Origin: Haplodiscus bocki
Lineage: Eukaryota
Direction of reading: 5' to 3'
NCBI GenBank assembly: GCA_965655095.1
Contig: OZ296651.1
Coordinates: 117,614,001 to 117,678,000 of the forward strand
Length of the DNA stretch: 64,000 nt
In this document: positions 23,107-64,000 of the stretch, in pieces
Layout of the letters: the number at the start of each line of letters is the position of its first letter
How positions within the stretch are numbered: the stretch's first letter is position 1
Notes under the pieces: generated by a model
Seen by the model: only the letters and a program-made list of their open reading frames with translations
What the model was told of the DNA's origin: nothing
Database searches by the model: none
Program-made: the position numbers and the translations under genes

Positions 23107-23248
23107 CACTATGCAGTCGAAGCATTATCTTTTCCAGCAAAAAGGTTGATGTTGCTGCACGTGCTACTTGGTTCATCACTCTGCAGCCGATGCGGTTGCA
23201 GCATAACATAAAGAGAAATTCACCATTGCATCACTATGCAGTCGATGC
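23107..23248. repeat. Three dispersed copies of CACTnTGCAGyCGAwGC just past the polyprotein stop
   Basis: Copies at 23107, 23177 and 23232; also in B2 (~40147-40288) and C (55372, 55430). Confidence 0.7.
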
Positions 23249-23346
23249 GTATGGCTGTCAAGGCAAGGAAGTTTGTGTGCAAGTAAAACAATTATCTCAA
23301 ACTAATCCATAAGTTTTTGGGCAGCTTTCTCCTAAAGTACGACTTT

Positions 23347-26300
23347 TCAAGACACAGTTGATGACCTGCAGCACACTACTAGTTTCAAATCATCTTCTTT
23401 GTATAGCCAATTTTTTGCGACAATTTCCCCCAAATTGATAGCTGTGGGAAGTGACACATTTTTCTTTTTTGCGTTGACGTAGTGTGTTGCCGCATTCAGC
23501 CACTCCTTCTCGAATGCTCGGATTCTCTCTGAAGCATTAATCGAATTGAAACCAGTAACATAAGCACAAACCATCCAGGGCAAACGATTTTGTACCTTGG
23601 TGAAGGAGGAACCCAGTCCTGCATTGTGCTCTCGCAAACAACGCACTAACGACATAGTGGAGCCAATGTACAGAAGGTGCTGCTGTGGTTCACTTTGGAG
23701 CAAGTAACAGAAGCCCACATTTTGAACGGGTAGTTCTCTCATTGAAGGGGGAAAAGGAGATGCTCTTGCATGATCAATTGTAGGGTCACCAGCGGAACTT
23801 TTAGTCAAAATTTCATTCGTGAGTTCAGCCCATTGCGAATTTTTGCAGACTAAATCCAAGACTGCTCGTTTGTTAGATTCCTTCGATCCAACAAAAGTCA
23901 CCTGATTCAGACTTCTTACTCGACTCATTACAACATAGATTTGTTCGGGAAGCCACAAAGCGAAGTCTTTCGATCCAACTATTTGGGTTGCGACCATCGG
24001 AAGCGTTTCACCCATTGTCTTATGAATGGTTGACGCAACAAATAATTTTAGTGGAAACTGGATTCGTCTGCAAACCGTTTTGTGGTTTAATCGGTAGGTA
24101 ACACCAGTTTCTTTGCCGATAACAACACAACGCCATTTGTTTTTGATCACAACAAGCGGTGGAATACTTCGGCAACCAGCTGGTGCTAGAGCAATTGTCA
24201 CAGAGCCATTCTCAATTGTATCCAAAGAAAGCAGAACACAGAGTTGACCCTGATACGCGGATATAGATGGCATGTTCACTGTTAGTCGTAAAATGGCTCC
24301 GGGGTACAGAAACAACGACTGGGGTTCAAGACACTTTTTGTTGAGAAATTTTGATGTACTTGGCGACGCCTCGGTCCAGTTGTCAGTGCTTGAAACGCAC
24401 ATTTCATCAATTGCCGCATTTTCATAATAATTGGGTACCGCTGTTTTTAACATCGATTATTTTGTCTTCAGTTGCTTTACGTTCTGCTTGTCGAGTGGCA
24501 AAAATTCGAATTCTATCATTCGGCACGTCTTTCCATGAATGGACAAAATTGCAACCTTTACCGATAATTTCCCAGATACGCCTCGCATTGCCGTCAGTTT
24601 TTGGAGTCGCTGACAACAAAGACAACAGTTCTTGGCCATTTTTGTTTTGCATGCGAACGAAATTTTCCAGTTTGAGAAAAGTGAACGTTGTGAGAGGAAA
24701 AGAAGAACTCATCAAACAAGATCCTGATGGTGGAGGAAGTTGGAAGAAATCTCCGGTTGCAATAACAAGTTTCCCACCGAATGGAACATAATTTGCTGTG
24801 ATAACCTGAAGCACATAATCCGTGGCAGCCCAAAGTTCGCTAGAAATCATTGACAATTCCTCCACGAAAAGAACGTGTAGATTTTGCAGAAAGCGGCACT
24901 TAATAGGAGATCGTTGTAGGTTGGACAGGGCTGTTCTCGAGAGCGATTCTGCAGAAGCGTGTTTTTCCACTGGAAATGGGATGAGGGCATTCAGATGTTT
25001 TCCAGCCAAAGCGGCAGATCTTTCAGCAGCCAAAGATGTCACTACACAGTTGAGACCTTGGCATAAAGCATATGCAAGCGATTTTAGCACAACGAAAGTT
25101 TTCCCACTTCCTGGAGGTCCAAAGACAATTTGATGCCTGATGAAACTGCAAAGTCCTTCTTTATAAATGTCGATGGAACTCAACAGTTTGTCTACTACAC
25201 TCTTCTGTTCCGTATAAGAGTTTCGACATTGATCCGGGCTTTTCTGAATGACTGGTTTCCAAGGTAAAGGGACGGTGATGGTTGCATCTAGCATCGCCTG
25301 CTCAGTAGGTAATTGTTTCTGACAAGTGTGAAGAAAAGCTACCATTTTGCATTTTTCCATACTGATTTGCACTGCTAGTGATTCTTCGTATTCTTCAATG
25401 ACACTTCTGTCCAGCACAGGCGGTAGCGCAGCAGCGAAATAAAGGCTGTTTACTAACAGAGCCTCTGAAAGAACACTGTGAGCCATTAAAAGGTATTTGT
25501 CAATTAGTTTCGAGGACCCAGGTACAAAACGCAGCTGTTTCAGCAAATAATTCCGTGTTAAATTTTGCACGGTCTTGGCTTTTATGTTACAGCTTGGAAT
25601 AATTTTAGCTGTTGTGAAAGCTTCTTTGAAAGACTGCACGTTCAGAATGTCCATCTCTGTGTCAAATTCTCCATTAGTCAAGAGCACATGTAGTAGAAAT
25701 TTAGTTGGGTTATTCGGCAAAACGTTACTGAAAACAACCACGGCATCTTCTTCGGACAACTGCTTCCAGTGAGCAACAAATTGTGATGCTTTTTTCGTCA
25801 CAAGCAACGGAACAATGTGTATTCTCATTTCGCGTTTCAGAATCCCATCCCGTCCATCGGTACCATTTGCACGACAGAAATTTACGAAAGCGTCCACTGA
25901 ACAAGGGCGTAGTTTAACCAAATACCCCAATGCATCAACCCAACAACTTCTGCGGAAGCTTCTCTTCAAGAACACTTCATGATTGCTGATGGATTTTTTT
26001 GTTTGCGGTTTACAACGAACAAACCAACTGTAGTAATTTTTTAACTTCGAGACAAACAAAAGTTCAGGTGGGCGGAGTCCAAAAACTGTTACTTTGTCTG
26101 GCGAAATAGAGCTGTTTTCAACATCTGCAAGAAGAAAACTTTGTGTTCTTGTGAACTGCCGGTGCTTTGGAAGTTGTAAAACGTGTTTCCGAACTCGGAT
26201 TCCTTCCATAAACGTGGCGCCCAACTTAATTTTATTGCTAAAGCGTTTTTCAGTGATAATTCCAGATCGATTTTCTTTGGGAACAGTTGGCACGTGAACA

Positions 26301-29300
26301 AAATCGACATTTGTGCAGACATAAGGAAGCTGTAAGGACCACCAGAGACACTCTGTTATGCTGACCACACGACCAGTTACCGATTTTTGTTTTTCATCGC
26401 CTGTCATTTTCTTTTGCGAAGCCTGTACCCCAGCTATTTTTTCATGTGCGATTGGTTCTGTTAAAACTTTGACACTATTTTCTCATTCACCAGCAACAAT
26501 TTTGGCAACTGCTCGAGATTCAATGCCGGCTGCATATTTTGCAACGTAGCGGGGGGCCATGTAGTCGTCACATATTTGAACATTGGTGCTGGATTGTGTC
26601 AAAGCAAAAAGAGCAGCGTTCGTTGGTGAATAATGTTCGTTAGAAACAGTGGGATAATGATGTTTTCCGGCCGTTAAAGGATCTTTCACTTTTGGGAATA
26701 GCGAGTTTTCATCTATGTCTGCCAGTTCCATTTCTCGCAGAAGTCCCATTGTTTCGCAGGAAAAGTTCACAGGAATTTCCTTGAAAGAAAAACAATTCGA
26801 AGGAGGATATTTAGGTACACGACAAATTGGTTTGTCCAGCCTGTCTGTCTTCTTATGGCAACGTTTACGGCCTTTCGAACAGTTATGGGTTTGATACTTT
26901 TGGTAAAGTTCACCCAGTTGGAAACGTTCGACTGCGTTCAATTCGGGGCAACTGACTTCTAAGCCACCCAAAAACGTTTGTTTTGAACAGCAAACTCGAG
27001 ATCGTACATCATCACTAAATTTATCTTCTGGTGTGCACAATATAGCATGCAAGTGTGGAAAGCCAGCTGTATCTTCTTGCCATTCGTACCTCATCCAAAT
27101 ATGAGACACAGGACCAAGTGGTTCTTCTGGTGAATTTTTCACCCATTCCATTACATATTGAGAGGCGCGGTACCAAGACCTGAGCATGGGCATGAGCTCA
27201 GCTTGAATTGCTGCTGCAAGTACTTCCTTTGGAGTGGTTTCTGCGGGATACATTTCATGCAGTGCTTCAAAGATTTTGCGAATCCCCGGGTGGGTCGATT
27301 GACTACAAGTGTATGTCACAAAGTAGGTTGGATTTTTGTCTCTAATCAAAGCCGCAAGTTCGCAGACATTTTTTCGACTTTCGGCACAATCAAACTTGAA
27401 AGTTTGAGTCGAAAGAAAAGAGCAATTATGAGGAACCGAATTAACTTCTTGCCATCCTCGATTTAGTATTATCCTAATGTCACTTTTATGAAGCTGCATG
27501 TTCAAGAGGCAATCAAACACATACTGCAAATAAGTAGGATTGCAAGATGTCAAAAGAGAGCCGTCCTTGATTCGAGTTCGAAGCATGTCATCCAAACCGG
27601 CGAAACCCAGCTGTTTGTTGTACTTGGATGAATTGTATAAAGCCTTTGGTATTGCTCCTGGAAAACTGCCGCTGCTAGCTTGACACCAAAAAATCGATGG
27701 AAAAAGAAGAGCTTCGGGTTGAATGAGCGGTAATGCAGACGTCGAAACAGCTGAAATATTTTCCAGGAAACGTTTTTCTTTCAGAGAAAGGCTGATTGGA
27801 TTCCCGTTACGTCGATAAAGAAGATTGCATTGTGAGTTTAAAAGAATATGGAGCGGTAGTTTGAAGGCATCTTCTTTTCGTTCAAGATCCACGGAAATCA
27901 GTTTTTCATCTGAGTTGGTTTTTAATGTAGCCATTATTCTCAAGTTGTCATCTTCGAATTCTTCGTCATTTGTTTCCGGATGAACAATATAACTGACGGA
28001 CGAACTGTTGCTTGATGCAATGTCAAGCGTTTCTGCTGCCGCATCTGGTTGAATTGGTTCATTTGCAGGCATGCTGTTGGGCTCAATAAAATCCCGTGAC
28101 GAAGATGATTCCGATACCAGAGAAGGGGAATTAGTTTTATTTAACTTCTCCAACGGTACTGAATCAATTAAAATACGTCTGTGTTGCTGCTGTAGACCTT
28201 CATTGAAGTGACGCTTGCAAACGCAAGAGTAGCACTGCAAATGCGGGCAGCGCAAAAACGATGCACGATTACATCTACATTGGAAACCACTGTTTCTGAA
28301 ATCTCTTGTTAAAGGAATTGTGTGATGTGCACAAATAAAAATACCCTGACCTGTCAAAGTGCTCAGAAATTTCCACTTCAAATCAATCAATTCAACATTT
28401 CTTGACTTTTGATAAATTGCAATTGTCCAATAACCCCGAATGAAAGTTTCCAGGGCATCAGTCGGAGAGCCTTCTGTTTTTGTGGCAATTTTTTTACTTT
28501 TCTCAATGAGCCAAAACCCCTGAAACCTCCCTCCATGTCTAACCAACCACCTCGGTTCTCCCTTGCTGCTTCCATCCTTCGTTCCAACTGCAATCAATTC
28601 GAATTCATTGTCGGAAATAATCAGGGTTAACGGTGGTTTCACCTTGTTCCGCAAATTTTTTGGGGAACCTGTCGTAAAAATGGCATGAGTCATGTTGTAC
28701 GAAACTTGCTCTGTTGTGGCTGAACCGATATTCTTCCGTTTGTTTAAGGGAACGTGTTGAATGGTGTCACAAATTTCTGAAAGAAACCTTGCTCCTACAA
28801 AACAACAACAGTCGGTTGTTCCCTCTGTTTTGTCATCAGTGTTAGTTTGTTCTATGACAGCTGAGACTGCTTGTTCGGATTTTCTAACAAGCCATAAAAC
28901 TTTTGCTGTATTCATTCTTGCGGTGCCAAGCAACACTTTCCTGAGTAAAGTGAACAAAGGCCTAAGTGTCACACTGTATTTTGATGAGTTCACTAAGGAT
29001 CGACAAAGTATTGGGGAAACACAAACTGCAGCCTGCACAATCCACGATACTATGCTTACTCTATTTTCCAGAGGAGGTGGAGAGCAGCCGTAATCATCAT
29101 TCCCATGGACGAGAGTGTAACAACTCAACGACTCAACATTGTTGAGATATTCTTTTTCATTCATTTCCACTATTTTCGTGAGGTCCAGGCATGTTTGTAA
29201 GTCTATTGAAGTGGCCTGTGACAAACAACTGTTGACTTTCTTTTTGTCCGGTACATAATCCAGCATTCCCGAAGCTACGTCATCAAGGATTTTACCCTGT

Positions 29301-31417
29301 CTTACCCACTCACGAATCATTGTTTTGATGTCTTCTCTGAAATGACAAGCGACGCCTTCAGCATAATACAAAATGTCACTAGTGAAATCCCAGCGCGTTT
29401 TCCGCTTCAATCGGACTGTGCTCATTCCACTGTAAGAGCCAACACTTCTTAGCAATTGGTACGTATGACTGGCGAAGTTGGCTTTTATGCTTGAGATGAA
29501 CGACAATGTGGGTGCGATGGCACTAAGACGTTCTTCATAATTCACTGTAGTTCGCACCAGCAAAGGATGTGATGGCGGATGAAAGTACTGCACACTGGAG
29601 CCTCTTGAGTGCCTGGAGCAAGCCTGAACCACGAGTCCCGCTTTTTCATCAACTCGCACTGTAGTCGCTACTAAGAACTGGCGCAGGGACACAAATGGTG
29701 TCAAAAAGTCGGACCTAATTCCTCTTAGATGCAGGAAGCTGGAGGACTGAAACGAGGTAAAGTTTCTTTCAAAAAGATTGATGAAGTGATTTGCGGGTAT
29801 CCAACCTGATTCTTCAATGAAACACCAGCACCCATATGGGCAGCGGACGTTGGGATAAGGTTCATTGTCCAGGGCAAGAGCAATGTTAGTCTGCTTCAAG
29901 GTTTTCATGAGTTCGTGGAAACGACGCAAACGAAGCGTCCCATCAACGGAACATTTCCCAGCAATCCGTTTCCGACTAAGACATCTTTGAACGCACAGGG
30001 GAAAGTAGTGCATGGATGTCATCCACTGCTGTCTCAATTCCCAAGGTAACAAAGACAAAATATCCATTTGGGTTCTAACTGGCATGTCTTGATCACTCAA
30101 TAGGCTGAAAAACACAGAGGGCCAAGCATTGTACCAATCATAACTTTCGGTTGTGCAATAGAGAAGACAGAGCTTACATAAAACAACAATGGGCTCCGTT
30201 AGCTTGTTTCCAAACACACGGTTTTTAAGATCAAATTTATTCTTCCTCTTCAACTTTAAAGGGTAAAGAACTGTTGACTGGCGCATGCATTTTGCGCAAC
30301 AGCCACATCCGCCCAAATTGGGGCACTCGCCGTTCGTGTGCATATTTCCTGAAACACTATCTGTTGGGGAAAAGTCAAAACATGGGGGTTCCAGCATTTG
30401 TGAACAATCGTTCTTTGGGAGGTTCGTTGAATTTGTTGATAATGTTTCCAAGGCCGAAAGTTTCTTCATTTTGGTAGATACAGAATTGGCGAAGAGACTT
30501 AATGCGAGCGGGTCAGGGTGCTCTTCCCAGGTGTAATCAGAACTGACTTTGCTTTTTTTCGAAGCTGGTTCAGTTTCAGTTCCTTCGCAGTTCTGCAAGG
30601 CTTGACTCCAATGATTAGTTTCGCTTGATTGAGAAGGAGGGCGATTAATTGATGCAACTTGCGATAAGCTGGAGCTTTCAGGACCAATTGAAACCAGCTC
30701 TGTTATCACCTCGAAGTGATTTGCATTCCGGTTTTGTTGAATGAAAATTCCTTTTCTATTTACGTTGGAGGAACATTCATAAATCATCCAGGATTTGAAT
30801 GGAACATGGTACAAAAAAACATCTACTTTGAAGATTTGGCAAAATGAATATATTTCTACACAGCTTCCAAAAACACCATTTTCTGCCATTCTAGATTCGC
30901 GGAGGTACTCATCGACGGAAGTACAACTCAAAACACGATGTTGGTTGGGAAAGTCATCGGAGTAAACAGATGTTTGCAGGCTATTAGGGGGGAAACTGTT
31001 TAAATTCATGTGGCTGACAATAATGTTACGTATGATTGGGCCACATTCATGTGACAGTCCCAGAGCAACTGCCAGAGAAGAAAAAAGGCAATTACCGTCC
31101 CCAAGCACTGCTGTTACCCGGACTGGCTGCATGGAGCAGATAACTGTATCGTTTCCGATAGCTGTTTTTGTAGGCTTTAAAAAGTCCATCAACCCCAAAG
31201 TGTTCAGCGAGCTGTGTATCTCCGTTCTCGCGGTAGGTGACAAAGCAACTGATGCATCGGGAATTTTGTATAAAATTCCTAAAGGCTCGTTGACCTGAAG
31301 TTCCAGCTCAATTGATTTTGCACACACATGATGTTCTCCAACAAATTGTCCACAGGAAGTACAACGACGACGCTTCAAGTTTCCTTTGTTGTTTTGTTTT
31401 GACATTGTAAAACACAA
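23347..31417 (-). pseudogene. OTU-Rep-helicase-GIY-YIG polyprotein, unit B1, with two lesions
   Basis: TGA at 26483 (ACA in B2) and a 1-bp insertion near 24428 split it into ORFs of 1644, 661 and 368 aa. Confidence 0.9.
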
Positions 31418-31666
31418 CAGACATTAATTCAGTGGGATCATGACTATATGAAAAAACAAGATGTTACAATACAAACACACGTTGAAGAATTAGCAGGGAA
31501 ATTCGTATAATAGGTAAATACATCAAATTGTCGTTTGAGCGAAGTCTTTTACGGTTCAATTACAAACCGTTGCCTGCCTAATTAAATTTCAGGTTCGATG
31601 CCGCGAAAAAGATAAGGCAGTACTGTAAAAAATCATAATTCAATTCCAACCATTCATAAACCAGAC

Positions 31667-31704
31667 GCCTTGGTTTTGCGAACGCACAGGAGCAAAACCA
31701 AGGC
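31667..31704. promoter_or_regulatory. Perfect 13-bp inverted repeat upstream of polyprotein
   Basis: GCCTTGGTTTTGC-GAACGCACAGGA-GCAAAACCAAGGC. Confidence 0.75.
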
Positions 31705-31899
31705 TTCCTCAGCAGTTGTATTGACTTCAATCGAACACAACGTAATTTTTCAGTTTCACAAAACACTTAGGAACTTGAAAACTTTTTGCAAAAAATGGCA
31801 CCAAGTAACTGAAGTTGGGTAAATTAAGACCCAACAAAGTTTTCAGAGGTTCGTAGTCTTTTTCACTGGTGTAAACCAGGCATCAATTCAATTCAGTTT

Positions 31900-34860
31900 T
31901 TGCAGGTAAAAAAATTTTATATTCAAGGGCCCAAAAAAATCAGTACCTTTGTTTCATCTCTGAAGTAAGTAGCTTGTTTTAACAGATGTAAAGTTGAAAA
32001 GATCAGTCTAGGTTTCGAAGAAAATGTCGTATAGAAGACGAAAAGAGACCAGATTTAAGATACGAAAAAGCTCAAGAATTTGACAGTCTAAAAAAAGCAT
32101 CCAATAACAATTTCATAAAAATAAGGGGGTACAGAGAATTGTTGGTACAAATTTTGTTTCAGTTGGGAGGAACAATGGGAAGCTCTACATTTCCATCATT
32201 CTCCGTCGAATTCACCTTTTCTCTCCGACAAATTCTCAAAATCATATATTCACGGCCTATTTCATTGAAGTACACAACGTAAACCACTACTGACAGTCTT
32301 TAGGCGTCATAAAAATGAATTTAGTATTTTTTTTAAATTACTTCAACGTTGGAAAGCTTCTTGAAATCAAGAGCTTAGTAACAAATTCCGCAAACTCTAT
32401 TCGTTGTTTTATTTCATGTCCTTTCGTCAACGGTGACAGATGAACAGGCACGTTGATGGAACAGAGGGGAAAATTTCAAGGCTCCAGATACGAAATCTCT
32501 TGATGAAAACATAAAAAGAATGGATCAAGGATGTTCAAAAAGTGCCATAGTTGTGTGCAATTCCAACTGCCTAGCATCATTCAGACACAGTTAATCGTTG
32601 TGATATAGTTTGCATCTTGAACTTGAAAAATTGAATCAGTTAAAGTCATTGATCAATATGGCTATCCCGCCTTGGCTTCTTATTGTCTTGATTCCGTCTA
32701 CTGACAATTAGATGAACATCCACTTCCCGATGATCTTTTACAAGTAAAGCATATTTGAAATTTTGAATTTCTGGCAGTGGAGCCATTTCATAAAATCTTC
32801 ACTGCAGGAAAGAAAGAGCCTCAAAGTGGACCTTAAGATTCGAAAGCATTGACTTTTAAACAACCAGGCTAGTCCAAGTGAGAAAATTGGCAGTTAACGG
32901 AAATATTATTCCGCAGAAAAAGGCTGCCAAAGCCAGCCATTGCGTGTGAGAAAAAGTTACGCATATAAAAGATATTTATGAAGTTAAAGATGAAATACGT
33001 TTTTATTTTTAATCAATCACTTTACAAACATTAACGATGTTTTATATATGTCTGCGGAGAAACATATGCTAATGTGAACAGTTGTAAGAGAACTAGCATA
33101 AGGTTGCAGAAGTGAATTGCCTTCCGTCCACCAAAATTCCAAATGACTCTGGGGGATCAGAGTATCAGGATGGGAATTAGCAAAATTAGAAAAACATTGT
33201 GAATAAAATAATAAGCTCTACAATAAAAAACAATAATTTGCTTCTGGAAATTCTATAATTTAAAATCAGGAAGAAAAAGTCAAAGAAGGGAAGGACGAAT
33301 CTGAAATTCGGTAAAATGTTGAACAAGTGATGGAATTAAATAGCTGAGGAAATGCCCCGTTCGTTACTCAATCTGGACTAACGAAACTTATTAGTTTCGC
33401 GAAAATATCGGAAATTTCGAATTGTCAGTACAGTCTTCAAAAAAGGAAATTATTTTTAGGAAGACATTATTGCGGAAAAAAAAGGTTGGGTGCTTTTCTT
33501 AAAAATGTTGACCGTAAAAGCAGGACAGTCATGTCAATGGGAAGCCATGAATAAAAAACGTAATTATTTAGGGAAAATTGGCTCGGACAACGTTGTAAAC
33601 AAATGAAGAAAGCGAATTAACGCGAAAACATGAAGCCACGAGGAAGCGTGCAGTAGCCATCTTTACTTTTCTACTTATGTGCTGATTGAAAAACATTATT
33701 GGTTAGTGAAACTTCATGCCAACACAAGGGGAAACCGGACCTTTCCCGTCAAGAAACGCTTGATTCAAACAAAAAGAAGCAGCTACAGCGCAGGAAGCCT
33801 TAATTGAAGAAATGATTGTGATGAATCGTGTTATCCATTAAAATACAAAACAACAAAAAAATAAATTACCTACCAGATGCGTAGTGCAACGTTTCCAATA
33901 AAAAACTCCACCTGAGCCCGGAAAAAAAATAGCATTTGGTGTCGATCAAAAACAAGTCATCATTCCGTTGCCTCTTTTTGTTTGAACATTAAAATTTCAT
34001 TCAACAAAACTATTCAGAAATTCATTTTCGAAAGCGGCGGAATGGGTGGTTGATATTAATCAGACACATTTTTCAAAAAACCAATGTAAGTTATAACAAT
34101 CAATGAAAACCTTGAAAATGAATCTCATAGGTATGAGAAACTGGAGAAACTTGCTCGTGATTTTCGAGGTTCAAACAACGCTTAAGGTTCGTGGAGACCA
34201 CCCGCTTCCAATATCCTGATTTTTGTTCACTAAATGTTAGTATCCCATTGCAAAGCTGCATTGTCAAGTTCATCCCTGCAGAAAACATTAGAAACAACAA
34301 AACAATTATTGTTTTTTCCACGAAGGCAGAATCCAAACATAATTTTGGAGTGCGTAATTGAACACCAGTCAAGTTTTTTCTTTGTTTAAAGAAACAACAA
34401 CAGCAATGAGACAAAAAAAATTTCTGGGAACAGCTCCAAAAGAAACAGCAAAAGTATGGATAAAAACTTAGAGTTAAAACAAAACTTTACTCACCTTTCA
34501 TATTTTAAGTACAGATAAATTTTACTAATGAATTGGACAAAAACCCAGAATTTTGGTAGCTGAAGAAAAGATTAAAAAGTAACTGTTAAACTTAAATTTT
34601 AACAAAAACATATTTTGTTCCAAGATAACAACTGTTCATTGCTCAGCATACTTCCGGCCCCTTCGTATTCACCGCCTAACTGCACCTTTCCCAAACTGCA
34701 TCGGCAAATCCAGTGCGTCTACAGGAAAACAAAGTTACCTCTCATGCAGGAGACAGAGAAGTTAGAACAACAATCTGAAATAAGGATTGACGACGATAAT
34801 TCTGTCAATATTTGCCACCCAAAAGGCATTTTTCGTCTTCGTCACAAAAATTGACAACAT
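31900..34860 (+). pseudogene. Spacer with several decayed plus-strand gene relics, possibly Polinton/virus-like
   Basis: Broken protein-like frames (ITSTLESFLK, FKAPDTKSLDENIK, WIKDVQKVP/VVCNSNCLA, ALASYCLDSVY, VVRELA..AFRPPK) and QDNNCSLLSIL..KLP..EKLEQQSEIRID (34621-34790), resembling the DNxCFxWSIL..FP..KFExxNxIxIN N-terminus of pPolB proteins. Confidence 0.35.
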
Positions 34861-34980
34861 ACTGCTTCACGGCTTCACGTTGACTGACGCACAATGACAG
34901 GACTACGCCCGTTTGTCGCAGAAAATAAATCTGAACACGAAAGAAACACCGATTCAAACCTCACGCCTTCTGGTAATTTT

Positions 34981-35062
34981 CACCGTCGCCTCCACTGGGT
35001 GGTCAGGGGATTGCGCCCCACATTAGTCCTTGCGAGGCGGGGGAGGGGCCCCTTTGCCTCGC
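34981..35062. repeat. Unit junction motif J3 (B1/B2) with GC-rich hairpin
   Basis: CACCGTCGCCTCCACTGGGTGGTCA - 26 nt - GCGAGGC...GCCTCGC (35032-35062). Confidence 0.9.
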
Positions 35063-36601
35063 GTTAAAATATAAGAAAAAACAAATATGCACAAACGGTA
35101 TAAGGAATTAGCGATCCTAGCTCCCACCCATACGATTTGGATCAAACTTTACATGCGGGCATAACTTTCAATTCTAAGAACAATGGTGCAAGTTAGATCA
35201 TTCTAGCAAAAATGGTTGAGGAATTATGACGGGATGATTCTGTTTTTTGGCCTCATTTTGCAGTTTTTTACCGACAGCCCTGCAAGGAACCACATGCATT
35301 TGGCCGAAACTTTTCGTGTGAAGCAGAATAACTAAGGGCTACACACATGCAAAAAATTTTCTACCAACTCGTCATAGGTGTTGAGATATGACGGATCAAA
35401 GTTGGAAAAAAATGCCGAAAATCGACCATTTCGTCATAGGTCCCACATTGAAGTGCATAGTTTGCCCTCTGGAGTGGCTCCAGTATGAAATCGACTCCAT
35501 AACTTCAAAGGCAATTTTCCGAAGATGAAAAAGTTTCGGCCACTTTGCCGAAAAAAATGACGGTTATGACGAATTTTTTGGAAAAAAAACAAAAATCAGA
35601 AAAAAATCAATTTTTGCTGTAGAATTTGAATATAACACTTAAACAGGCGTATGGTGAAACGTCGGCAGGAATTTTTGCCCGCAATTCTCGGAGAGCAACT
35701 GTTCCTTTAACAAACAACTTCAAGTTTGATGAGTTTCTGGGAAGGAAAACTAAAATTTTTGTCCGAACGAATACTTTCAAAATTTGACCAGCGAAAGTGT
35801 TTTAACTTTCTCAAAAAGTTTCGCATCAATGTTGTCAATTTGTAGGCAGTAGGTTCCCAGCTGTTACTTTGTGAAAACAACCCGAATGAACCAAATGAAC
35901 CTGTATAGACTTCAGAAAAAAATTTCCCTAAAATTTCGTATGAAAGTTTGATCCCATTCTTCTGTTAGCGAAAATTACAACACTGTATCAAACGTCAAGC
36001 AACGAACTGAGAGCGTGCACTTCGACCGATAGAAGAGCAAGCCAGCGTTTCAAAGTTCAAAACGTTCGGTCATGAACGGATAGTAATGTTTAACATAACA
36101 AGAAAGAAGTTAATTGCATAACATAAAAAGTTCACAACTTCTACACGAACCAATAAACCACACTCAAAAGCCACACGAATTAGCACAATGTTCTAAGCTA
36201 CTGAAAAACGTAGGTTTACAGAGACAAGTCGTCGGCAGTTGCAAACTAATTTCCATTGTTCAACAACAACTAATTTGTAATTTGACATTAGTGTTTACAG
36301 TTCCACAAAAACCAACAATTAACCTTTGGGTACTGATAAGTACTGGAAAGTTAAACTTTATCATTAACAAGAAAATTGAAGCATAGGTTTCAAGATTGAA
36401 AAGGAGGAGAACAAATTGTGGTATGAAAGAACGAGGACAACTTTATCAGTTGACTTTTTTTCCGAAACTTGTTAATTTGTGCATGTTTTTTTCAGCAACC
36501 ACCTTGCGGTCGATTGCGAAAGGAGAGATTGGTTTTGAAAACCAGCAAGCAGTTCATGCGGTGGAGAAAGAACGGTCATCTGAGGAGTAAGTCTAGATCA
36601 G

Positions 36602-37612
36602 CTATCGTACGTTGTTCGGATTGTTAGGAGCACCGACGTTAGTATTCGCATGTTGCAAAGCTGGGGGCTCATTGCCAATATTGGCGTTGCATGGCACAAT
36701 GTTGTATTTCAAGTTAAAAGGCACTTCAACGGCAGGCGTAATTTTGCAAATGCGGACACGTTGTACGTTTTGTGCAAGATTTTCGTCTGTGGATCCACTT
36801 TTGTAAAATCCACATACCTGCCAACCACCATTCTCATTTACAAATTGGGACACCTGGTTAACAGCAATCCGCAGTTGTTGCGAATCGATTGATGCATATG
36901 AACTTCTAATAATTGCTTCGCTGCAAAACAGTTTTGTCAGGTTAAGACTTTGTATCATTTCTCCCGTGAGGGAATCTTCGTCTTCATTTTCGATGTCACG
37001 ACTGACAATTCGGGCGCACATTACCCAAGCTGAAACAGGAGATTTCTGTATACAGGGGCATACAGAGTCAATTCGTTTTTCTCGTCTGTCACACATGAAG
37101 CCTGAGCAAGTTGGAGCTACAGCACCTGCTTGTAAGAAGGTGAGGGGTCTGTTTGGCAAGCAAAAGTGAAACATTGCTGTCGTTGATGGGTGGAGATATA
37201 TGGGAATTGGCAACAATGGAATATTGTTAACCACGACTTCCAAAGGAAGAAAGACATGAAAAATTGGATTACTGCGGTCATTGCCGAGACAAGAGTTCGA
37301 GAACACAGGTTCTTTTACGTCCACAATTGACCCTACTGTTAACAGAGTGTCCCCGAACAAAAAATAGCTTTTCTGTGCAGACTCCGCAATCACAGCAAAG
37401 CATTCTTTTGAATTGATCTCGCCTAGTATGACTAATCGATCATAGCTGGTATCGAGGGCACCTCTCTTGTTTTTGATATTTTGCGGTCTAAACAACTGCA
37501 AAGGTTTGTCGTATTTCTTAATTACTAGAACGATACCTCTGACGAATGTATTTTCGCTTCGACGCAAAAAATTTGGTGCTGTTACTTGGGAGGTGTTCAC
37601 TTGAGTTGTCAA
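36602..37612 (-). CDS. Element-borne uncharacterised protein (336 aa), B2 copy
   Basis: One internal amino-acid difference from B1 (D to Y); first codon is TTG rather than ATG. Confidence 0.75.
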   Translation of the reverse strand: MTTQVNTSQVTAPNFLRRSENTFVRGIVLVIKKYDKPLQLFRPQNIKNKRGALDTSYDRLVILGEINSKECFAVIAESAQKSYFLFGDTLLTVGSIVDVKEPVFSNSCLGNDRSNPIFHVFLPLEVVVNNIPLLPIPIYLHPSTTAMFHFCLPNRPLTFLQAGAVAPTCSGFMCDRREKRIDSVCPCIQKSPVSAWVMCARIVSRDIENEDEDSLTGEMIQSLNLTKLFCSEAIIRSSYASIDSQQLRIAVNQVSQFVNENGGWQVCGFYKSGSTDENLAQNVQRVRICKITPAVEVPFNLKYNIVPCNANIGNEPPALQHANTNVGAPNNPNNVR

Positions 37613-39056
37613 AGTCTGAAATCAAAAGTGGTTGAAGCTGCCTGAGAATTGAACAATTGGAACATTCAAAACCATGCTTTTTCCTTTTTTAAAGATTCTG
37701 TGAACGCATTTTCCTATAAGGTTCAATGAAGTCAACAGGCAAGTAATTTTGGTTTCAAGCATTTAATCCAGTGAATTAGCGCTATTGCTTCAAGTAAAGC
37801 AACCTGTTTTTCAAAAAAGCATGACAAGTTTCTCAATTATTCACATTTCTCAAATCTTCTTTATCATTAAGTTTATTTCATCGAAATGTTATGTTACATT
37901 TACAGTTATCTTACTGTTCAACGCATCACGCTTTATCGATCAGTAACACTCAAGGCAAAAGAAAAAAAATGGTGAGCAATGCATTCAAATACATCGTTAT
38001 TACATCGGTTTTTTTCCTGTCTACAAAACTTGTAGAAAGTTAAGGATTATAAATTATATCTTCATTGCAGATGTTCGACAACTGAAGTTTAATACGAGCT
38101 CAAAGCTGCACAATGTTTGCTATAACGTTTTTTGCGAATATAAGAACAAACATTTCAAAAGAAAACTTTATTCAAAATAATATGAACAATCCTTGTAACA
38201 GCATGGCCGAGGTTAGTTGATCACTTTCGAAATTTTAAACTACCAAAAGTTTTTAACAAACAATGTAACTATGGAGTACACTATTTCAGCGAAAACATGA
38301 AGGAATTGTGACGACTCATAGCGGACGGCGACCATTAAAAAAATGTTCCAATGACAACGAAGCATCAAAAATTCAAAGAGGTACAGATCACCATGCGGTT
38401 GAACTCCTTACAACGTCATCACAAACCAACTTTAAATTGAATGAGGCATGAAGACAAAGTTTAAAATAATAAATATGTTGTAATGTACGCCAAAATGCAA
38501 GGTGTGTGGAACAAAAAAAATTCAAAACTTCAAAGAAGTAGAGGCCACCATGCGGTCGAGCTTTTTTACAATTTTATCACTGACAAATTACAAATCGAAG
38601 AGGACACGAAAACAAAATTAAAACACTGTCCTAGCGGCGTCAATTGGCCAAGATTATTGGAAACCAAAAAAGCACCTTTGTTTGTTTTTAATGGTACCAC
38701 CAAAAAAAGTTTCAAAATTGTGTCATCATGAAAAAACTACCAAGAGTATTCGAAACATAGGTGCAACGACCAAGATTGTAATTCCATTTTCCAGAAATGT
38801 CCAAATGAAGCCTACAACAACACAGGGCCGGATCTTCACCACTTCCAGTGGACGTAGCGGTTTTTGCGATGGGAGAGTCTCCTGATTGAGTATCCTAAAC
38901 GACATTGGTGTTAGAATGGAAGTTTATGGAAAAAACGTAAACCTTCTATAGGTAAATTCCAAAGAGTTTAAAGCTAGAAACATTCAATTGCTGGAAAGTT
39001 GATATCAACCGCAAATTACTGGAATCAATACTGTTTTTCAACATCTTAATGTACTG

Positions 39057-39809
39057 CTAGACACATTTGTTACCTAAAATCCGTCTTTTTATAATCCACA
39101 GGATGTTCGTCACGCCGTGCTGAGACAGATGCACTCCGTCTTTAAGATTTCTTTCAGATGACATCTTAGATGACACGGAAACGTAAGTGTAGTGTCCAAT
39201 GGATGTTCGCAGCATTCGGTTTATTTCTTTCACTGCAAGGAAGTACGGTCGGCTTCGCATTACTAAGCCCAGGCAGTATACTTTGTCGCATTTTCTCTCG
39301 GCAATTCTCACAAGGTTCAAGATATCAAGGAACACCTAACAATAAAACAACAAAAGCAAATGAAGTACTGTTGAGATATTAAAAACACAAAGTTACGGTT
39401 CAATTATAGTTTGCAAGTAGCACCAGTTAAAGTACCAGTAGAAAGACTTACTATTGAAAACAACGTTTTCCTAGATTTTTACTAAACGTACTTCAATAAA
39501 GGGTTTAACAATACACAAAAACGTTCCAAATTTTACTAGCGTCTAATTTGATTTTGCAAACAGTAACCCCATGAACCATCACTTAAGCTTTACCTGTTCT
39601 GGACTTTCAGCTGGACGCCGGCCCCAATTGGAAAGGCCATTCCCTCCAATGAAAATTGTAATGGATTGGAAGCGGCGCCGCAAATTTTCCAGGAAACTCG
39701 TTACACGTCGGTCCGCCGCTCTGGCGCCAGGAAAACTTTTAACTGCCAAATTTTCAAGCACACCTTCCAGTTGTACGCCCAGAGAGTCGGTTATGATCAA
39801 ATGAGCCAT
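39057..39809 (-). CDS. SGNH/GDSL hydrolase, two exons (39809-39594 and 39335-39057)
   Basis: Copy of 22018-22770 with intact motifs and splice sites. Confidence 0.85.
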
Positions 39810-40386
39810 AATGATGTGGAAGCACTGTGAAAAACGTTGGTTTCTGCAGCTTCAGGTATCATCCCCGAATACGGGGATACAGTAACAAGAGTGCTTCAAT
39901 CAACAATGTCAAAATTCGTCATTTAACGTATGATTATATTTTTTTCCCGAAAAAACTTGAAAGTTAGCTGATTTCTATTGTCCAAAATTAACGGCGCTTT
40001 TTTAAATGGACTCTTTCTAGTGCTTCCAAAATCAAAGTCCATCAAATCAGGTTCAGTGAAAGTCAATCCCATCAAACTAATGAATTAAACAGACACAGAC
40101 AAGTGATTAGCAACAAATCATCTCAACTGCAAAATAGATAATGCAACACTATGCAGTCGAGGCATTATATTTTCCAGCAAAAAGGTTGATGTTGCTGCAC
40201 GTGCTACTTGGTACATCACTCTGCAGCCGATGCGGTTGCAGCATAACATAAAGAGAAATTCACCATTGCATCACTATGCAGTCGATGCGTATGGCTGTCA
40301 AGGCAAGGAAGTTTGTGTGCAAGTAAAACAATTATCTCAAACTAATCCATAAGTTTTTGGGCAGCTTTCTCCTAAAGTACGACTTT

Positions 40387-43300
40387 TCAAGACACAGTTG
40401 ATGACCTGCAGCACACTACTAGTTTCAAATCATCTTCTTTGTATAGCCAATTTTTTGCGACAATTTCCCCCAAATTGATAGCTGTGGGAAGTGATACATT
40501 TTTCTTTTTTGCGTTGACGTAGTGTGTTGCCGCATTCAGCCACTCCTTCTCGAATGCTCGGATTCTCTCTGAAGCATTAATCGAATTGAAACCAGTAACA
40601 TAAGCACAAACCATCCAGGGCAAACGATTTTGTACCTTGGTGAAGGAGGAACCCAGTCCTGCATTGTGCTCTCGCAAACGACGCACTAACGACATAGTGG
40701 AGCCAATGTACAGAAGGTGCTGCTGTGGTTCACTTTGGAACAAGTAACAGAAGCCCACATTTTGAACGGGTAGTTCTCTCATTGAAGGGGGAAAAGGAGA
40801 TGCTCTTGCATGATCAATTGTAGGGTCACCAGCGGAACTTTTAGTCAAAATTTCATTCGTGAGTTCAGCCCATTGCGAATTTTTGCAGACTAAATCCAAG
40901 ACTGCTCGTTTGTTAGATTCCTTCGATCCAACAAAAGTCACCTGATTCAGACTTCTTACTCGACTCATTACAACATAGAGTTGTTCGGGAAGCCACAAAG
41001 CGAAGTCTTTCGATCCAACTATTTGGGTTGCGACCATCGGAAGCGTTTCACCCATTGTCTTATGAATGGTTGACGCAACAAATAATTTTAGTGGAAACTG
41101 GATTCGTCTGCAAACCGTTTTGTGGTTTAATCGGTAGGTAACACCAGTTTCTTTGCCGATAACAACACAACGCCATTTGTTTTTGATCACAACAAGCGGT
41201 GGAATACTTCGGCAACCAGCTGGTGCTAGAGCAATTGTCACAGAGCCATTCTCAATTGTATCCAAAGAAAGCAGAACACAGAGTTGACCCTGATACGCGG
41301 ATATAGATGGCATGTTCACTGTTAGTCGTAAAATGGCTCCGGGGTACAGAAACAACGACTGGGGTTCAAGACACTTTTTGTTGAGAAATTTTGATAAACT
41401 TGGCGACGCCTCGGTCCAGTTGTCAGTGCTTGAAACGCACATTTCATCAATTGCCGCATTTTCATAAAATTGGGTACCGCTGTTTTTAACATCGATTATT
41501 TTGTCTTCAGTTGCTTTACGTTCTGCTTGTCGAGTGGCAAAAATTCGAATTCTATCATTCGGCACGTCTTTCCATGAATGGACAAAATTGCAACCTTTAT
41601 CGATAATTTCCCAGATACGCCTCGCATTGCCGTCAGTTTTTGGAGTCGCTGACAACAAAGACAACAGTTCTTGGCCATTTTTGTTTTGCATGCGAACGAA
41701 ATTTTCCAGTTTGAGAAAAGTGAACGTTGTGAGAGGAAAAGAAGAACTCATCAAACAAGATCCTGATGGTGAAGGAAGTTGGAAGAAATCTCCGGTTGCA
41801 ATAACAAGTTTCCCACAGAATGGAACATAATTTGCTGTGATAACCTGAAGCACATAATCCGTGGCAGCCCAAAGTTCGCTAGAAATCATTGACAATTCCT
41901 CCACGAAAAGAACGTGTAGATTTTGCAGAAAGCGGCTCTTAATAGGAGATCGTTGTAGGTTGGACAGGGCTGTTCTCGAGAGCGATTCTGCAGAAGCGTG
42001 TTTTTCCACTGGAAATGGGATGAGGGCATTCAGATGTTTTCCAGCCAAAGCGGCAGATCTTTCAGCAGCCAAAGATGTCACTACACAGTTGAGACCTTGG
42101 CATAAAGCATATGCAAGCGATTTTAGCACAACGAAAGTTTTCCCACTTCCTGGAGGTCCAAAGACAATTTGATGCCTGATGAAACTGCAAAGTCCTTCTT
42201 TATAAATGTCGAAGGAACTCAACAGTTTGTTTAATACACTCTTCTGTTCCGTATAAGAGTTTCGACATTGATCCGGGCTTTTCTGAATGACTGGTTTCCA
42301 AGGTAAAGGGACGGTGATGGTTGCATCTAGCATCGCCTGCTCAGTAGGTAATTGTTTCTGACAAGTGTGAAGAAAAGCTACCATTTTGCATTTTTCCATA
42401 CTGATTTGCACTGCTAGTGATTCTTCGTATTCTTCAATGACACTTCTGTCCAGCACAGGCGGTAGCGCAGCAGCGAAATAAAGGCTGTTTACTAACAGAG
42501 CCTCTGAAAGAACACTGTGAGCCATTAAAAGGTATTTGTCAATTAGTTTCGAGGACCCAGGTACAAAACGCAGCTGTTTCAGCAAATAATTCCGTGTTAA
42601 ATTTTGCACGGTCTTGGCGTTTATGTTACAGCTTGGAATAATTTTAGCTGTTGTGAAAGCTTCTTTGAAAGACTGCACGTTCAGAATGTCCATCTCTGTG
42701 TCAAATTCTCCATTAGTCAAGAGCACATGTAGTAGAAATTTAGTTGGGTTATTCGGCAAAACGTTACTGAAAACAACCACGGCATCTTCTTCGGACAACT
42801 GCTTCCAGTGAGCAACAAATTGTGATGCTTTTTTCGTCACAAGCAACGGAACAATGTGTATTCTCATTTCGCGTTTTAGAATCCCATCCCGTCCATCGGT
42901 ACCATTTGCACGACAGAAATTTACGAAAGCGTCCACTGAACAAGGGCGTAGTTTAACCAAATACCCCAATGCATCAACCCAACAACTTCTGCGGAAGCTT
43001 CTCTTCAAGAACACTTCATGATTGCTGATGGATTTTTTTGTTTGCGGTTTACAACGAACAAACCAACTGTAGTAATTTTTTAACTTCGAGACAAACAAAA
43101 GTTCAGGTAGGCGGAGTCCAAAAACTGTTACTTTGTCTGGCGAAATAGAGCTGTTTTCAACATCTGCAAGAAGAAAACTTTGTGTTCTTGTGAACTGCCG
43201 GTGCTTTGGAAGTTGTAAAACTTGTTTCCGAACTCGGATTCCTTCCATAAACGTGGCGCCCAACTTAATTTTATTGCTAAAGCGTTTTTCAGTGATAATT

Positions 43301-46300
43301 CCAGATCGATTTTCTTTGGGAACAGTTGGCACGTGAACAAAATCGACATTTGTGCAGACATAAGGAAGCTGTAAGGACCACCAGAGACACTCTGTTATGC
43401 TGACCACACGACCAGTTACCGATTTTTGTTTTTCATCGCCTCTCATTTTCTTTTGCGAAGCCTGTACCCCAGCTATTTTTTCATGTGCGATTGGTTCTGT
43501 TAAAACTTTGACACTATTTTCTGTTTCACCAGCAACAATTTTGGCAACTGCTCGAGATTCAATGCCGGCTGCATATTTTGCAACGTAGCGGGGGGCCATG
43601 TAGTCGTCACATATTTGAACATTGGTGCTGGATTGTGTCAAAGCAAAAAGAGCAGCGTTCGTTGGTGAATAATGTTCGTTAGAAACAGTGGGATAATGAT
43701 GTTTTCCGGCCGTTAAAGGATCTTTCACTTTTGGGAATAGCGAGTTTTCATCTATGTCTGCCAGTTCCATTTCTCGCAGAAGTCCCATTGTTTCGCAGGA
43801 AAAGTTCACAGGAATTTCCTTGAAAGAAAAACAATTCGAAGGAGGATATTTAGGTACACGACAAATTGGTTTGTCCAGCCTGTCTGTCTTCTTATGGCAA
43901 CGTTTACGGCCTTTCGAACAGTTATGGGTTTGATACTTTTGGTAAAGTTCACCCAGTTGGAAACGTTCGACTGCGTTCAATTCGGGGCAACTGACTTCTA
44001 AGCCACACAAAAACGTTTGTTTTGAACAGCAAACTCGAGATCGTACATCATCACTAAATTTATCTTCTGGTGTGCACAATATAGCATGCAAGTGTGGAAA
44101 GCCAGCTGTCTCTTCTTGCCATTCGTAACTCATCCAAATATGAGACACAGGACCAAGTGGTTCTTCTGGTGAATTTTTCACCCATTCCATTACATATTGA
44201 GAGGCGCGGTACCAAGACCTGAGCATGGGCATGAGCTCAGCTTGAATTGCTGCTGCAAGTACTTCCTTTGGAGTGGTTTCTGCGGGATACATTTCATGCA
44301 GTGCTTCAAAGATTTTGCGAATCCCCGGGTGGGTCGATTGACTACAAGTGTATGTCACAAAGTGGGTTGGATTTTTGTCTCTAATCAAAGCCGCAAGTTC
44401 GCAGACATTTTTTCGACTTTCAGCACAATCAAACTTGAAAGTTTGAGTCGAAAGAAAAGAGCAATTATGAGGAACCGAATTAACTTCTTGCCATCCTCGA
44501 TTTAGTATTATCCTAATGTCACTTTTATGAAGCTGCATGTTCAAGAGGCAATCAAACACATACTGCAAATAAGTAGGATTGCAAGATGTCAAAAGAGAGC
44601 CGTCCTTGATTCGAGTTCGAAGCATGTCATCCAAACCGGCGAAACCCAGCTGTTTGTTGTACTTGGATGAATTGTATAAAGCCGTTGGTATTGCTCCTGG
44701 AAAACTGCCGCTGCTAGCTTGACACCAAAAAATCGATGGAAAAAGAAGAGCTTCGGGTTGAATGAGCGGTAATGCAGACGTCGAAACAGCTGAAATATTT
44801 TCCAGGAAACGTTTTTCTTTCAGAGAAAGGCTGATTGGATTCCCGTTACGTCGATAAAGAAGATTGCATTGTGAGTTTAAAAGAATATGGAGCGGTAGTT
44901 TGAAGGCATCTTCTTTTCGTTCAAGATCCACGGAAATCAGTTTTTCATCTGAGTTGGTTTTTAATGTAGCCATTATTCTCAAGTTGTCATCTTCGAATTC
45001 TTCGTCATTTGTTTCCGGATGAACAATATAACTGACGGACGAACTGTTGCTTAATGCAATGTCAAGCGTTTCTGCTGCCGCATCTGGTTGAATTGGTTCA
45101 TTTGCAGGCATGCTGTTGGGCTCAATAAAATCCCGTGACGAAGATGATTCCGATACCAGAGAAGGGGAATTAGTTTTATTTAACTTCTCCAACGGTACTG
45201 AATCAATTAAAATACGTCTGTGTTGCTGCTGTAGACCTTCATTGAAGTGACGCTTGCAAACGCAAGAGTAGCACTGCAAATGCGGGCAGCGCAAAAACGA
45301 TGCACGATTACATCGACATTGGAAACCACTGTTTCTGAAATCTCTTGTTAAAGGAATTGTGTGATGTGCACAAATAAAAATATCCTGACCTGTCAAAGTG
45401 CTCAGAAATTTCCACTTCAAATCAATCAATTCAACATTTCTTGACCTTTGATAAATTGAAATTGTCCAATAACCCCGAATGAAAGTTTCCAGGGCATCAG
45501 TCGGAGAGCCTTCTGTTTTTGTGGCAAATTTTTTACTTTTCTCAATGAGCCAAAACCCCTGAAACCTCCCTCCATGTCTAACCAACCACCTCGGTTCTCC
45601 CTTGCTGCTTCCATCCTTCGTTCCAACTGCAATCAATTCGAATTCATTGTCGGAAATAATCAGGGTTAACGGTGGTTTCACCTTGTTCCGCAAATTTTTT
45701 GGGGAACCTGTCGTAAAAATGGCATGAGTCATGTTGTACGAAACTTGCTCTGGTGTGGCTGAACCGATATTCTTCCGTTTGTTTAAGGGAACGTGTTGAA
45801 TGGTGTCACAAATTTCTGAAAGAAACCTTGCTCCTACAAAACAACAACAGTCGGTTGTTCCCTCTGTTTTGTCATCAGTGTTAGTTTGTTCTATGACAGC
45901 TGAAACTGCTTGTTCGGATTTTCTAACAAGCCATAAAACTTTTGCTGTATTCATTCTTGCGGTGCCAAGCAACACTTTCCTGAGTAAAGTGAACAAAGGC
46001 CTAAGTGTCACACTGTATTTTGATGAGTTCACTAAGGATCGACAAAGTATTGGGGAAACACAAACTGCAGCCTGCACAATCCACGATACTGTGCTTACTC
46101 TATTTTCCAGAGGAGGTGGAGAGCAGCCGTAATCATCATTCCCATGAACGAGAGTGTAACAACTCAACGACTCAACATTGTTGAGATATTCTTTTTCATT
46201 CATTTCCACTATTTTCGTGAGGTCCAGGCATGTTTGTAAGTCTATTGAAGTGGCCTGTGACAAACAACTGTTGACTTTCTTTTTGTCCGGTACATAATCC

Positions 46301-48456
46301 AGCATTCCCGAAGCTACGTCATCAAGGATTTTACCCTGTCTTACCCACTCACGAATCATTGTTTTGATGTCTTCTCTGAAATGACAAGCGACGCCTTCAG
46401 CATGATACAAAATGTCACTAGTGAAATCCCAGCGCGTTTTCCGCTTCAATCGGACTGTGCTCAATCCACTGTAAGAGCCAACACTTCTTAGCAATTGGTA
46501 CGTATGACTGGCGAAGTTGGCTTTTATGCTTGAGATGAACGACAATGTGGGTGCGATGGCACTAAGACGTTCTTCATAATTCACTGTAGTTCGCACCAGC
46601 GAAGTATGTGATGGCGGATGAAAGTACTGCACACTGGAGACTCTTGAGTGCCTGGAGCAAGCCTGAACCACGAGTCCCGCTTTTTCATCAACTCGCACTG
46701 TAGTCGCTACTAAGAACTGGCGCAGGGACACAAATGGTGTCAAAAAGTCGGACCTAATTCCTCTTAGATGCAGGAAGCTGGAGGACTGAAACGAGGTAAA
46801 GTTTCTTTCAAAAAGATTGATGAAGTGATTTGCGGGTATCCAACCTGATTCTTCAATGAAACACCAGCACCCATATGGGCAGCGGACGTTGGGATAAGGT
46901 TCATTGTCCAGGGCAAGAGCAATGTTAGTCTGCTTCAAGGTTTTCATGAGTTCGTGGAAACGACGCAAACGAAGCGTCCCATCAACGGAACATTTCCCAG
47001 CAATCCGTTTCCGACTTAGACATCTTTGAACGCACAGGGGAAAGTAGTGCATGGATGTCATCCACTGCTGTCTCAATTCCCAAGGTAACAAAGACAAAAT
47101 ATCCATTTGGGTTCTAACTGGCATGTCTTGATCACTCAATAGGCTGAAAAACACAGAGGGCCAAGCATTGTACCAATCATAACTTTCGGTTGTGCAATAG
47201 AGAAGACAGAGCTTACATAAAACAACAATGGGCTCCGTTAGCTTGTTTCCAAACACACGGTTTTTAAGATCAAATTTATTCTTCCTCTTCAACTTTAAAG
47301 GGTAAAGAACTGTTGACTGGCGCATGCATTTTGCGCAACAGTCACATCCGCCCAAATTGGGGCACTCGCCGTTCGTGTGCATATTTCCTGAAACACTATC
47401 TGTTGGGGAAAAGTCAAAACATGGGGGTTCCAGCATTTGTGAACAATCGTTCTTTGGGAGGTTCGTTGAATTTGTTGATAATGTTTCCAAGGCCGAAAGT
47501 TTCTTCATTTTGGTAGATACAGAATTGGCGAAGAGACTTAATGCGAGCGGGTCAGGGTGCTCTTCCCAGGTGTAATCAGAATTGACTTTGCTTTTTTTCG
47601 AAGCTGGTTCAGTTTCAGTTCCTTAGCAGTTCTGCAAGGCTTGACTCCAATGATTAGTTTCGCTTGATTGAGAAGGAGGGCGATTAATTGATGCAACTTG
47701 CGATAAGCTGGAGCTTTCAGGACCAATTGAAACCAGCTCTGTTATCACCTCGAAGTGATTTGCATTCCGGTTTTGTTGAATGAAAATTCCTTTTCTATTT
47801 ACGTTGGAGGAACATTCATAAATCATCCAGGATTTGAATGGAACATGGTACAAAAAAACATCTACTTTGAAGATTTGGCAAAATGAATATATTTCTACAC
47901 AGCTTCCAAAAACACCATTTTCTGCCATTCTAGATTCGCGGAGGTACTCATCGACGGAAGTACAACTCAAAACACGATGTTGGTTGGGAAAGTCATCGGA
48001 GTAAACAGATGTTTGCAGGCTATTAGGGGGGAAACTGATTAAATTCATGTGGCTGACAATAATGTTACGTATGATTGGGCCACATTCATGTGACAGTCCC
48101 AGAGCAACTGCCAGAGAAGAAAAAAGGCAATTACCGTCCCCAAGCACTGCTGTTACCCGGACTGGCTGCATGGAGCAGATAACTCTATCGTTTCCGATAG
48201 CTGTTTTTGTAGGCTTTAAAAAGTCCATCAACCCCAAAGTGTTCAGCGAGCTGTGTATCTCCGTTCTCGCGGTAGGTGACACAGCAACTGATGCATCGGG
48301 AATTTTGTATAAAATTCCTAAAAGCTCGTTGACCTGAAGTTCCAGCTCAATTGATTTTGCACACACATGATGTTCTCCAACAAATTGTCCACAGGAAGTA
48401 CAACGACGACGCTTCAAGTTTCCTTTGTTGTTTTGTTTTGACATTGTAAAACACAA
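40387..48456 (-). pseudogene. OTU-Rep-helicase-GIY-YIG polyprotein, unit B2, single nonsense codon
   Basis: TAA at 47623 (GAA in B1) separates the 277-aa OTU part from a 2373-aa open frame holding Rep, helicase and GIY-YIG. Confidence 0.9.
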
Positions 48457-63920: not shown

Positions 63921-64000
63921 TTTGGGAAGATGCCTTTTACATATAGTGCTTCACTCGTGCCGACATCAAATAGCAAAAGTCCTACAGGCAAAGCACATAG

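Follow-up and report, generated by a model that had tools for sequence, protein, structure and literature searches.

A divergent terminal tract, likely a product of ordinary repeat recombination, in an unusual head-to-tail array of Helitron-like elements in Haplodiscus bocki

We compared the locus with the Helitron literature in the text that was accessible to us, including PMC11417382, PMC3627910, PMC4067079, PMC5148889, PMC13565253, PMC6431247, PMC12001565 and PMC13085455. Elements of the Helitron2/Helentron type (HLE2) have a long RepHel ORF with an upstream OTU domain, a nuclease fused to its C-terminus, and many short derivatives (PMC3627910, PMC4067079, PMC11417382). HELIANO uses DUF6570 as its HLE2 marker, and a GIY-YIG domain is described there in one Sphagnum HLE2 family (PMC11417382). 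A third clade, found in Paramecium, lies outside HLE1/HLE2 and has very long ORFs and a strict insertion preference and orientation; its elements insert in telomeric repeats with a CCAA end, and copies of one element carry alternative right ends, RTSa-c and RTSf-m (PMC13085455). The main text of that paper contains no GIY or Slx term. In Fusarium, FoHeli elements show self-insertion, composites with extra short (<200 bp) termini, tandem copies and circular intermediates (PMC5148889). Tandem Helitrons in plant centromeres are cited in the same work (PMC5148889).

The stretch of DNA analysed here (the window) is 64,000 nucleotides of the Haplodiscus bocki contig OZ296651.1. Self-comparison showed that the window is a head-to-tail array of ~17-kb units, in which three Helitron-like subfamilies, A, B and C, are stacked and meet at a single fixed position (Table 1). 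At all six joints available, four in the window and two in contigs L001 and L002 of another sample, the unit switches right after CCACTGGGTGGTCANG: the letters through this sequence follow the left unit and the letters beyond it follow the right unit. The left/right combinations were A'/A, A/B, B/B and B/C in the window and B/A and A/B in the public contigs. The two bases at the joint were G and G or G and C in all six cases. Every joint was element-to-element (6/6), and a host-flanked end was seen at none of them. CTAG was present 35-38 bp to the left of the joint in A-type ends and in L001 and was absent from B1 and B2. We infer from these sequences that new units may be added at the joints of resident units (self-targeting).

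Table 1. Positions of the units and of features at their ends, in window coordinates
Feature	Position	Strand	Remarks
Unit A	1374..17968	-	RepHel ORF in several pieces, 6721-14505; second ORF 2688-3740
Unit B1	17969..35007	-	17,039 bp; RepHel in three pieces, 23347-31423; second ORF 19563-20582
Unit B2	35008..52046	-	17,039 bp; RepHel in two pieces, 40387-48462; second ORF 36602-37621
Unit C	52047..64000	-	Truncated by the window end; tail 52047-55176 B-like, body more distant
B2 terminal tract	35008..35151		24-bp spacer, G-rich motif, A-rich variable stretch, start of conserved core
B1 terminal tract	17969..18111		20 differences from B2; letters also in contigs of runs X3 and X4
Inferred recombination breakpoint	18099..18132 (35139-35172 in B2)		Likelihood support interval (2 lnL)
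G-rich motif	35032..35065 (B1 17993-18026)	+	Kept at all joints; long hairpin in B-type ends only
Other end of left neighbour, ~44 bp conserved, ending in CCACTGGGTGGTCANG	34964..35007		Joint directly after
Further copies of the ~44-bp end	1330-1373, 17925-17968, 52003-52046
~600-bp terminal block common to subfamilies	35008..35600		Six ATGACG motifs; raised contig depth
Open 2,706-codon frame in unit C	55528..63648	-	OTU, Helitron Rep (HUH), Pif1 helicase, C-terminal Slx1-like GIY-YIG nuclease
Second ORF of tail module	36602..37621	-	339 codons; no Pfam family

The terminal tract lies downstream of the RepHel ORF. The motif ATGACG, counted in both orientations, occurs 36 times in the window, with six copies in each B and C terminal block (35226-35571) and three in A, and its clusters are possible protein-binding repeats. 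A ~100-bp direct repeat (about 74% alike) is present at 38365-38623 and 21326-21584, in a stretch between tail and RepHel that only B has. A search of the whole window against Rfam gave no match, and therefore no host RNA gene is seen as the target. Two patterns had no match in viral contigs. Two matches in prokaryote genomes, L003 and L004, were set aside as chance, both lying within a bacterial coding gene.

Each of A, B1, B2 and C has one long minus-strand ORF with OTU, Helitron Rep, Pif1 helicase and C-terminal GIY-YIG domains; the frame is intact in C and interrupted at differing places in the other three. With an HUH Rep and a Pif1 helicase predicted in one ORF, the units are classified as Helitron-like elements. 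The PIF1 match had E = 2e-12, and Helitron_like_N (E = 4e-6, 27.6 bits) just missed its cut-off of 28.9, which relatives such as P0012 exceed. Rep motifs 1-3 are kept across 33 aligned proteins, and a match to Helraiser is confined to the helicase part (E = 0.002). The best solved relatives of the GIY-YIG domain are SLX1 enzymes, which are structure-specific and cut branched DNA (E 2e-7 to 5e-3). At E <= 1e-30, a profile search with the Rep region gave 141 clusters. Of 20 distant long RepHel relatives picked among the 150 listed (P0121-P0188), 14 have a GIY-YIG domain at the C-terminus, one of them together with a Ulp1 protease domain. Four relatives (P0009, P0026, P0047 and P0107) are on contigs whose length, 17.3-17.8 kb, is close to that of a single unit; these may be collapsed repeats or free circles.

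Neither DUF6570 nor an AP endonuclease was found in any of 11 RepHel proteins at E <= 1 or in any of the 20 distant ones at E <= 0.001. The ends characteristic of HLE1 (5'-TC and CTRR-3') were absent on either strand at the inferred joint. As for HLE2, no inverted pair of at least 10 nt across the joint, as expected of asymmetric terminal inverted repeats, was common to the three junctions scanned, and T/T insertion was found at none of the six joints, all of which are element-to-element. The CCAA right end and the telomeric-repeat flanks of the Paramecium clade were likewise absent at 6/6 joints. The unit ends fit neither the HLE1 nor the HLE2 rules, and this clade may be among the elements that HELIANO leaves as 'unclassified'.

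The second ORF, 339-350 codons long with a Cys-rich middle, is present in all four units (in C at 53668-54687). It matched no Pfam family; its Atlas matches, to clusters of OB-fold single-stranded DNA-binding proteins, scored at most 0.83 and are a weak lead, and its structure model (pLDDT 29) was unusable.

B1 and B2 are 99.5% identical over the 17-kb unit. When they were aligned (17969-35007 against 35008-52046), 115 events were counted: 20 in the first 152 bp, 6 in the following 440 bp, and 89 in the last 16,447 bp (0.54%). The terminal excess reported in the initial annotation of this DNA is therefore real. A scan of the pair gave at most 4 events in any other 152-bp window, far below the 20 at 17969-18120. 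By segment, there were 5 events in the 24 bp of the spacer, none in the 34 bp of the G-rich motif, 13 in the 52 bp after the motif (Poisson P = 9e-18), and 2 in the 42 bp of the core. The 440 bp beyond the tract were mildly elevated (1.4%, P = 0.035), and the final 900 bp at the opposite end of the unit had no difference. Of the tract events, 19 are substitutions and one is a gap; the gap is among the 13 post-motif events (18027-18078), the other 12 being substitutions.

Our recount matched the earlier figures of 6 differences in 17967-17992, 13 in 18027-18078 and 2 in 18079-18120, except in its total. Site 17967/35006 sits to the left of the joint, and its letter follows the unit on that side, being C where this unit is A-type and G where it is B-type; because the site is part of the left neighbour, the tract holds 20 differences and not 21. 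The sequence described as an unchanged hairpin does have no difference between B1 and B2, and its G-rich motif is kept in all the ends, but the long hairpin does not extend beyond the B-type ends, since the second arm is altered in A and C. When the terminal folds were compared with shuffled sequences, none of 8 was better (z from -0.81 to +1.24).

Divergence had also been said to fall with distance from the joint. It does fall, though a step at 18099-18132 describes the fall better than a gradient. In likelihood fits over the first 600 columns, compared by AIC, the best model combined the B-versus-C family profile x 0.5 with a step (182.6), followed by a flat step (187.6), the profile times decay (190.0), an exponential decay (195.3), the family profile without a step (200.8) and background only (277.7). 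Depending on the pair compared, the step was better than decay by 2.4-12.7 AIC; ~26 events underlie the fit, and 2.4 is its narrowest margin.

We then asked where the letters of the two tracts occur in other samples. L002 covers 11 of the differing columns; it shares its letter with B2 in 6 of them and with B1 in 4, and matches neither copy in the remaining one. Over ~85 tract columns it is 9 events from B1 and 7 from B2, which are themselves 11 apart there. The element bodies of the same sample differ from the window at 88 of 923 (9.5%) and 162 of 1344 (12.1%) positions. Because the L002 tract divergence matches that of the body (8-11%), the tract has not evolved at a higher rate than the body along lineages; had every insertion changed 10% of it, the tract would by now be saturated.

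Contigs of four runs (X3, X4, X14 and X16) were compared over 34650-36150, of which no contig spans the whole stretch; we used the best 40 of 250 variants (2 of them in the tract), 12 of 25 indels and 24 of 222 loose ends. The labels of the runs point to a coral-associated host. The B1 letters at a three-column patch, 18043-18045, were also present in X3 and X4, which come from two other studies, and L002 has the B2 letters there. X3 had the gap at 35083 (depth 36.7 of 51.3) and a loose end, and X4 had a loose end (loose ends at 35082 and 35086). The B1-type gap had a depth of 44 of 22,585 in X14 and of 0 in X16 and X4, which gives no support for a common B1-type end in the closest samples and counts against a sister-lineage tip; X14 or X16 may be the source of the window. 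Two X3 contigs differed from B2 at 16 positions and at 13 plus the gap (B1: 14 plus the gap; C: 36-37), these being counts and not letter-by-letter comparisons. The B2 letters at 35103 and 35151 were in no compared contig of the four runs, where contigs may omit rare variants; two such rare changes compare with ~0.4 expected (hand Poisson, P about 0.06), another point against a sister-lineage tip. One X14 contig jumps from 35606, at the end of the terminal block, back to 34970 in the opposite terminus, which suggests that short non-autonomous units, ~640 bp or longer, stack as well.

Units C and B have a 3.1-kb tail in common (about 89% alike), after which similarity drops within a few bases. 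This tail (52047-55176 against 35008-38113 in B2) includes the second ORF and breaks off sharply some 350 bp beyond the RepHel stop; the remainder of C is much more distant from B. At 4-fold sites, B and C differ at 14 of 138 (0.10) in the tail ORF and at 402 of 711 (0.57) in RepHel, while A is equidistant from both in the two genes (about 0.70). As judged from sequence comparison, unit C carries a second, sharp tail swap with the same polarity as the B1/B2 tip. The C-type tail is common in X14, where 19 of 22 deep variants beyond the tract are C letters. Protein clusters of the second ORF include copies 98-99% and about 95% identical to B2, two of them on equally long contigs; the ~95% lineages would have a depth that suits a donor half as distant as C. 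No exact donor of the B1/B2 tip was found in the window or in the public contigs.

Pop-out of the solo-LTR type, and gene conversion between transposon copies, recombine direct repeats into a hybrid repeat with a sharp breakpoint. The account that we lean towards, by a modest preference, is that a crossover within the terminal block common to the subfamilies gave one B copy, probably B1 (which adjoins unit A), a tip that stems from an older sister lineage. Units added at the joint between residents would lie as direct repeats of their neighbours, and the ~600-bp terminal blocks, the most similar part of neighbouring units, could recombine. If a sister-lineage unit or a short non-autonomous unit stood in front of the young B, a pop-out or unequal crossover between the two blocks would remove the intervening unit, whose tip would stay behind on the young body. 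With one crossover at about 18099-18132, the first ~140 bases would come from the sister lineage. On this account the 20 differences would not be new mutations but long-standing variants, with selection on the G-rich motif acting as a filter. Hybrids would form on the tract side only because the other end is conserved over just ~44 bp. Of the two earlier proposals, end swapping from another family member is thus the better supported, but not as a swap at each insertion: the subfamily switch is at the joint itself in 6/6 cases, and one young pair was compared. A shift model, in which an incoming circle trades ends with a resident at an internal point, was rejected as the normal route, as the ends at 35008 and 52047 should then match, and they are further apart than those of B1 and B2.

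A step and shared alleles are equally expected of polar gene conversion, in which a nick by Rep or by the Slx1-like nuclease, at the joint or close to it, would start a repair that copies ~140 bp from one of many terminal blocks located elsewhere, with the neighbours unmoved. We hold this to be rather unlikely. The tract does begin at the joint and is one-sided, and the fused domain, a predicted nuclease, is nearest to branch-cutting enzymes. Summed contig depth over 34956-35620, a figure that we do not take as copy number, was several-fold above both flanks in 4/4 runs. However, the 3.1-kb swap in C would be long for such a tract. Conversion and crossover leave the same sequence pattern, so that the present tests do not separate them.

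The second earlier proposal, that insertion or repair is locally mutagenic, would have every event leave new substitutions near the joint, perhaps aided by a G-quadruplex-prone motif. The G4Hunter-type score is at least 1.4, a modest value, at 4/4 window joints; the two B2 letters seen in no compared contig would suit new mutation; and the spacer is strongly variable in every pair compared. Between A and L001, 10 of 18 spacer columns differ and L001 is 6 bases shorter, and the rest of the end differs at 13 of 153. Local damage at the joint could account for this variability, and mutagenic insertion may still act on the 24-bp spacer. As the source of the tract we consider it improbable. The G-rich motif has no event in 34 positions, compared with 18 in 76 for the sequence on its two sides (Fisher P = 0.0013), the step fits better than decay, alleles of several bases are met again in independent samples, and saturation is seen neither in the tract relative to L002 nor, outside the spacer, in A relative to L001. 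Its substitution spectrum resembles that of the body, with transitions at 8/19 against 41/89 (P = 0.80); A/T transversions were 7/19 against 16/89 (P = 0.12). Columns variable in outgroups made up 11 of 20 differences and 53 of 131 matches, which was not significant (P = 0.23) and does not help the sister-lineage account. The recurrence of alleles at the three-column patch, the step, the spared motif and the ordinary spectrum also speak against reading the tract as a per-event barcode.

An assembly chimera, with the tip of one array copy joined to the body of another inside the conserved core, seems less probable still: the step does fall in a conserved stretch of a high-copy repeat, and read-level support consists of contigs, none of them spanning the stretch, but 19/20 events are substitutions without homopolymer slips, B1-type letters are present in other samples, and B1 and B2 keep their own private changes and frame breaks over 17 kb, which majority polishing would be expected to erase.

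The tract is likely a product of ordinary repeat recombination, and it therefore marks the ancestry of the tip and not individual insertion events. Helitron integration and target choice are poorly understood, and the array setting, with subfamilies meeting at one fixed position in four left/right combinations, outweighs the tract in importance. It is a speculative idea, to which we give low credence, that a widespread undescribed clade of Helitrons with an Slx1-like nuclease lands on its own joint, its subfamilies cutting and overwriting each other's tips in mixed arrays in a homing-like contest over the terminal recognition sequence. If self-targeting is true, Helitron integration could be tested directly, with a defined target and a nuclease that is a candidate for the resolving step; it would also be a warning that these families are misclassified when judged by their end sequences.

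The accessible text of the papers above already describes self-insertion, tandem copies, elements with alternative ends and one case of GIY-YIG capture. We found no description of mixed-subfamily Helitron arrays with a fixed joint or of an Slx1-like RepHel clade in the literature covered, with Repbase, most subscription journals and supplements outside its scope. As described in those papers, HLE2 elements resemble the units in their long RepHel ORF with OTU and C-terminal nuclease and in their short derivatives, but the nuclease here is Slx1-like GIY-YIG instead of an AP endonuclease, DUF6570 is absent, the joint lacks asymmetric inverted repeats of 10 nt or more and a TT target, and the arrays mix subfamilies. 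The tandem stacking of units, putatively by self-insertion, recalls Fusarium FoHeli in its published account; there the termini are duplicated, whereas here the tip is replaced without duplication and different subfamilies meet at one fixed position. Unlike in a solo-LTR pop-out, the repeats are terminal blocks of neighbouring Helitron units and not the LTRs of one element. GIY-YIG homing systems, where a sequence-specific cut drives conversion, share the predicted domain, but its nearest solved relatives are structure-specific SLX1 enzymes. The third clade of Paramecium, by its described features, is similar in apparently lying outside HLE1/HLE2, in its very long ORF, in a strict preference for insertion site and orientation, and in its alternative ends; the joints here differ from it in having no telomeric repeats, the apparent target being the element's own joint.
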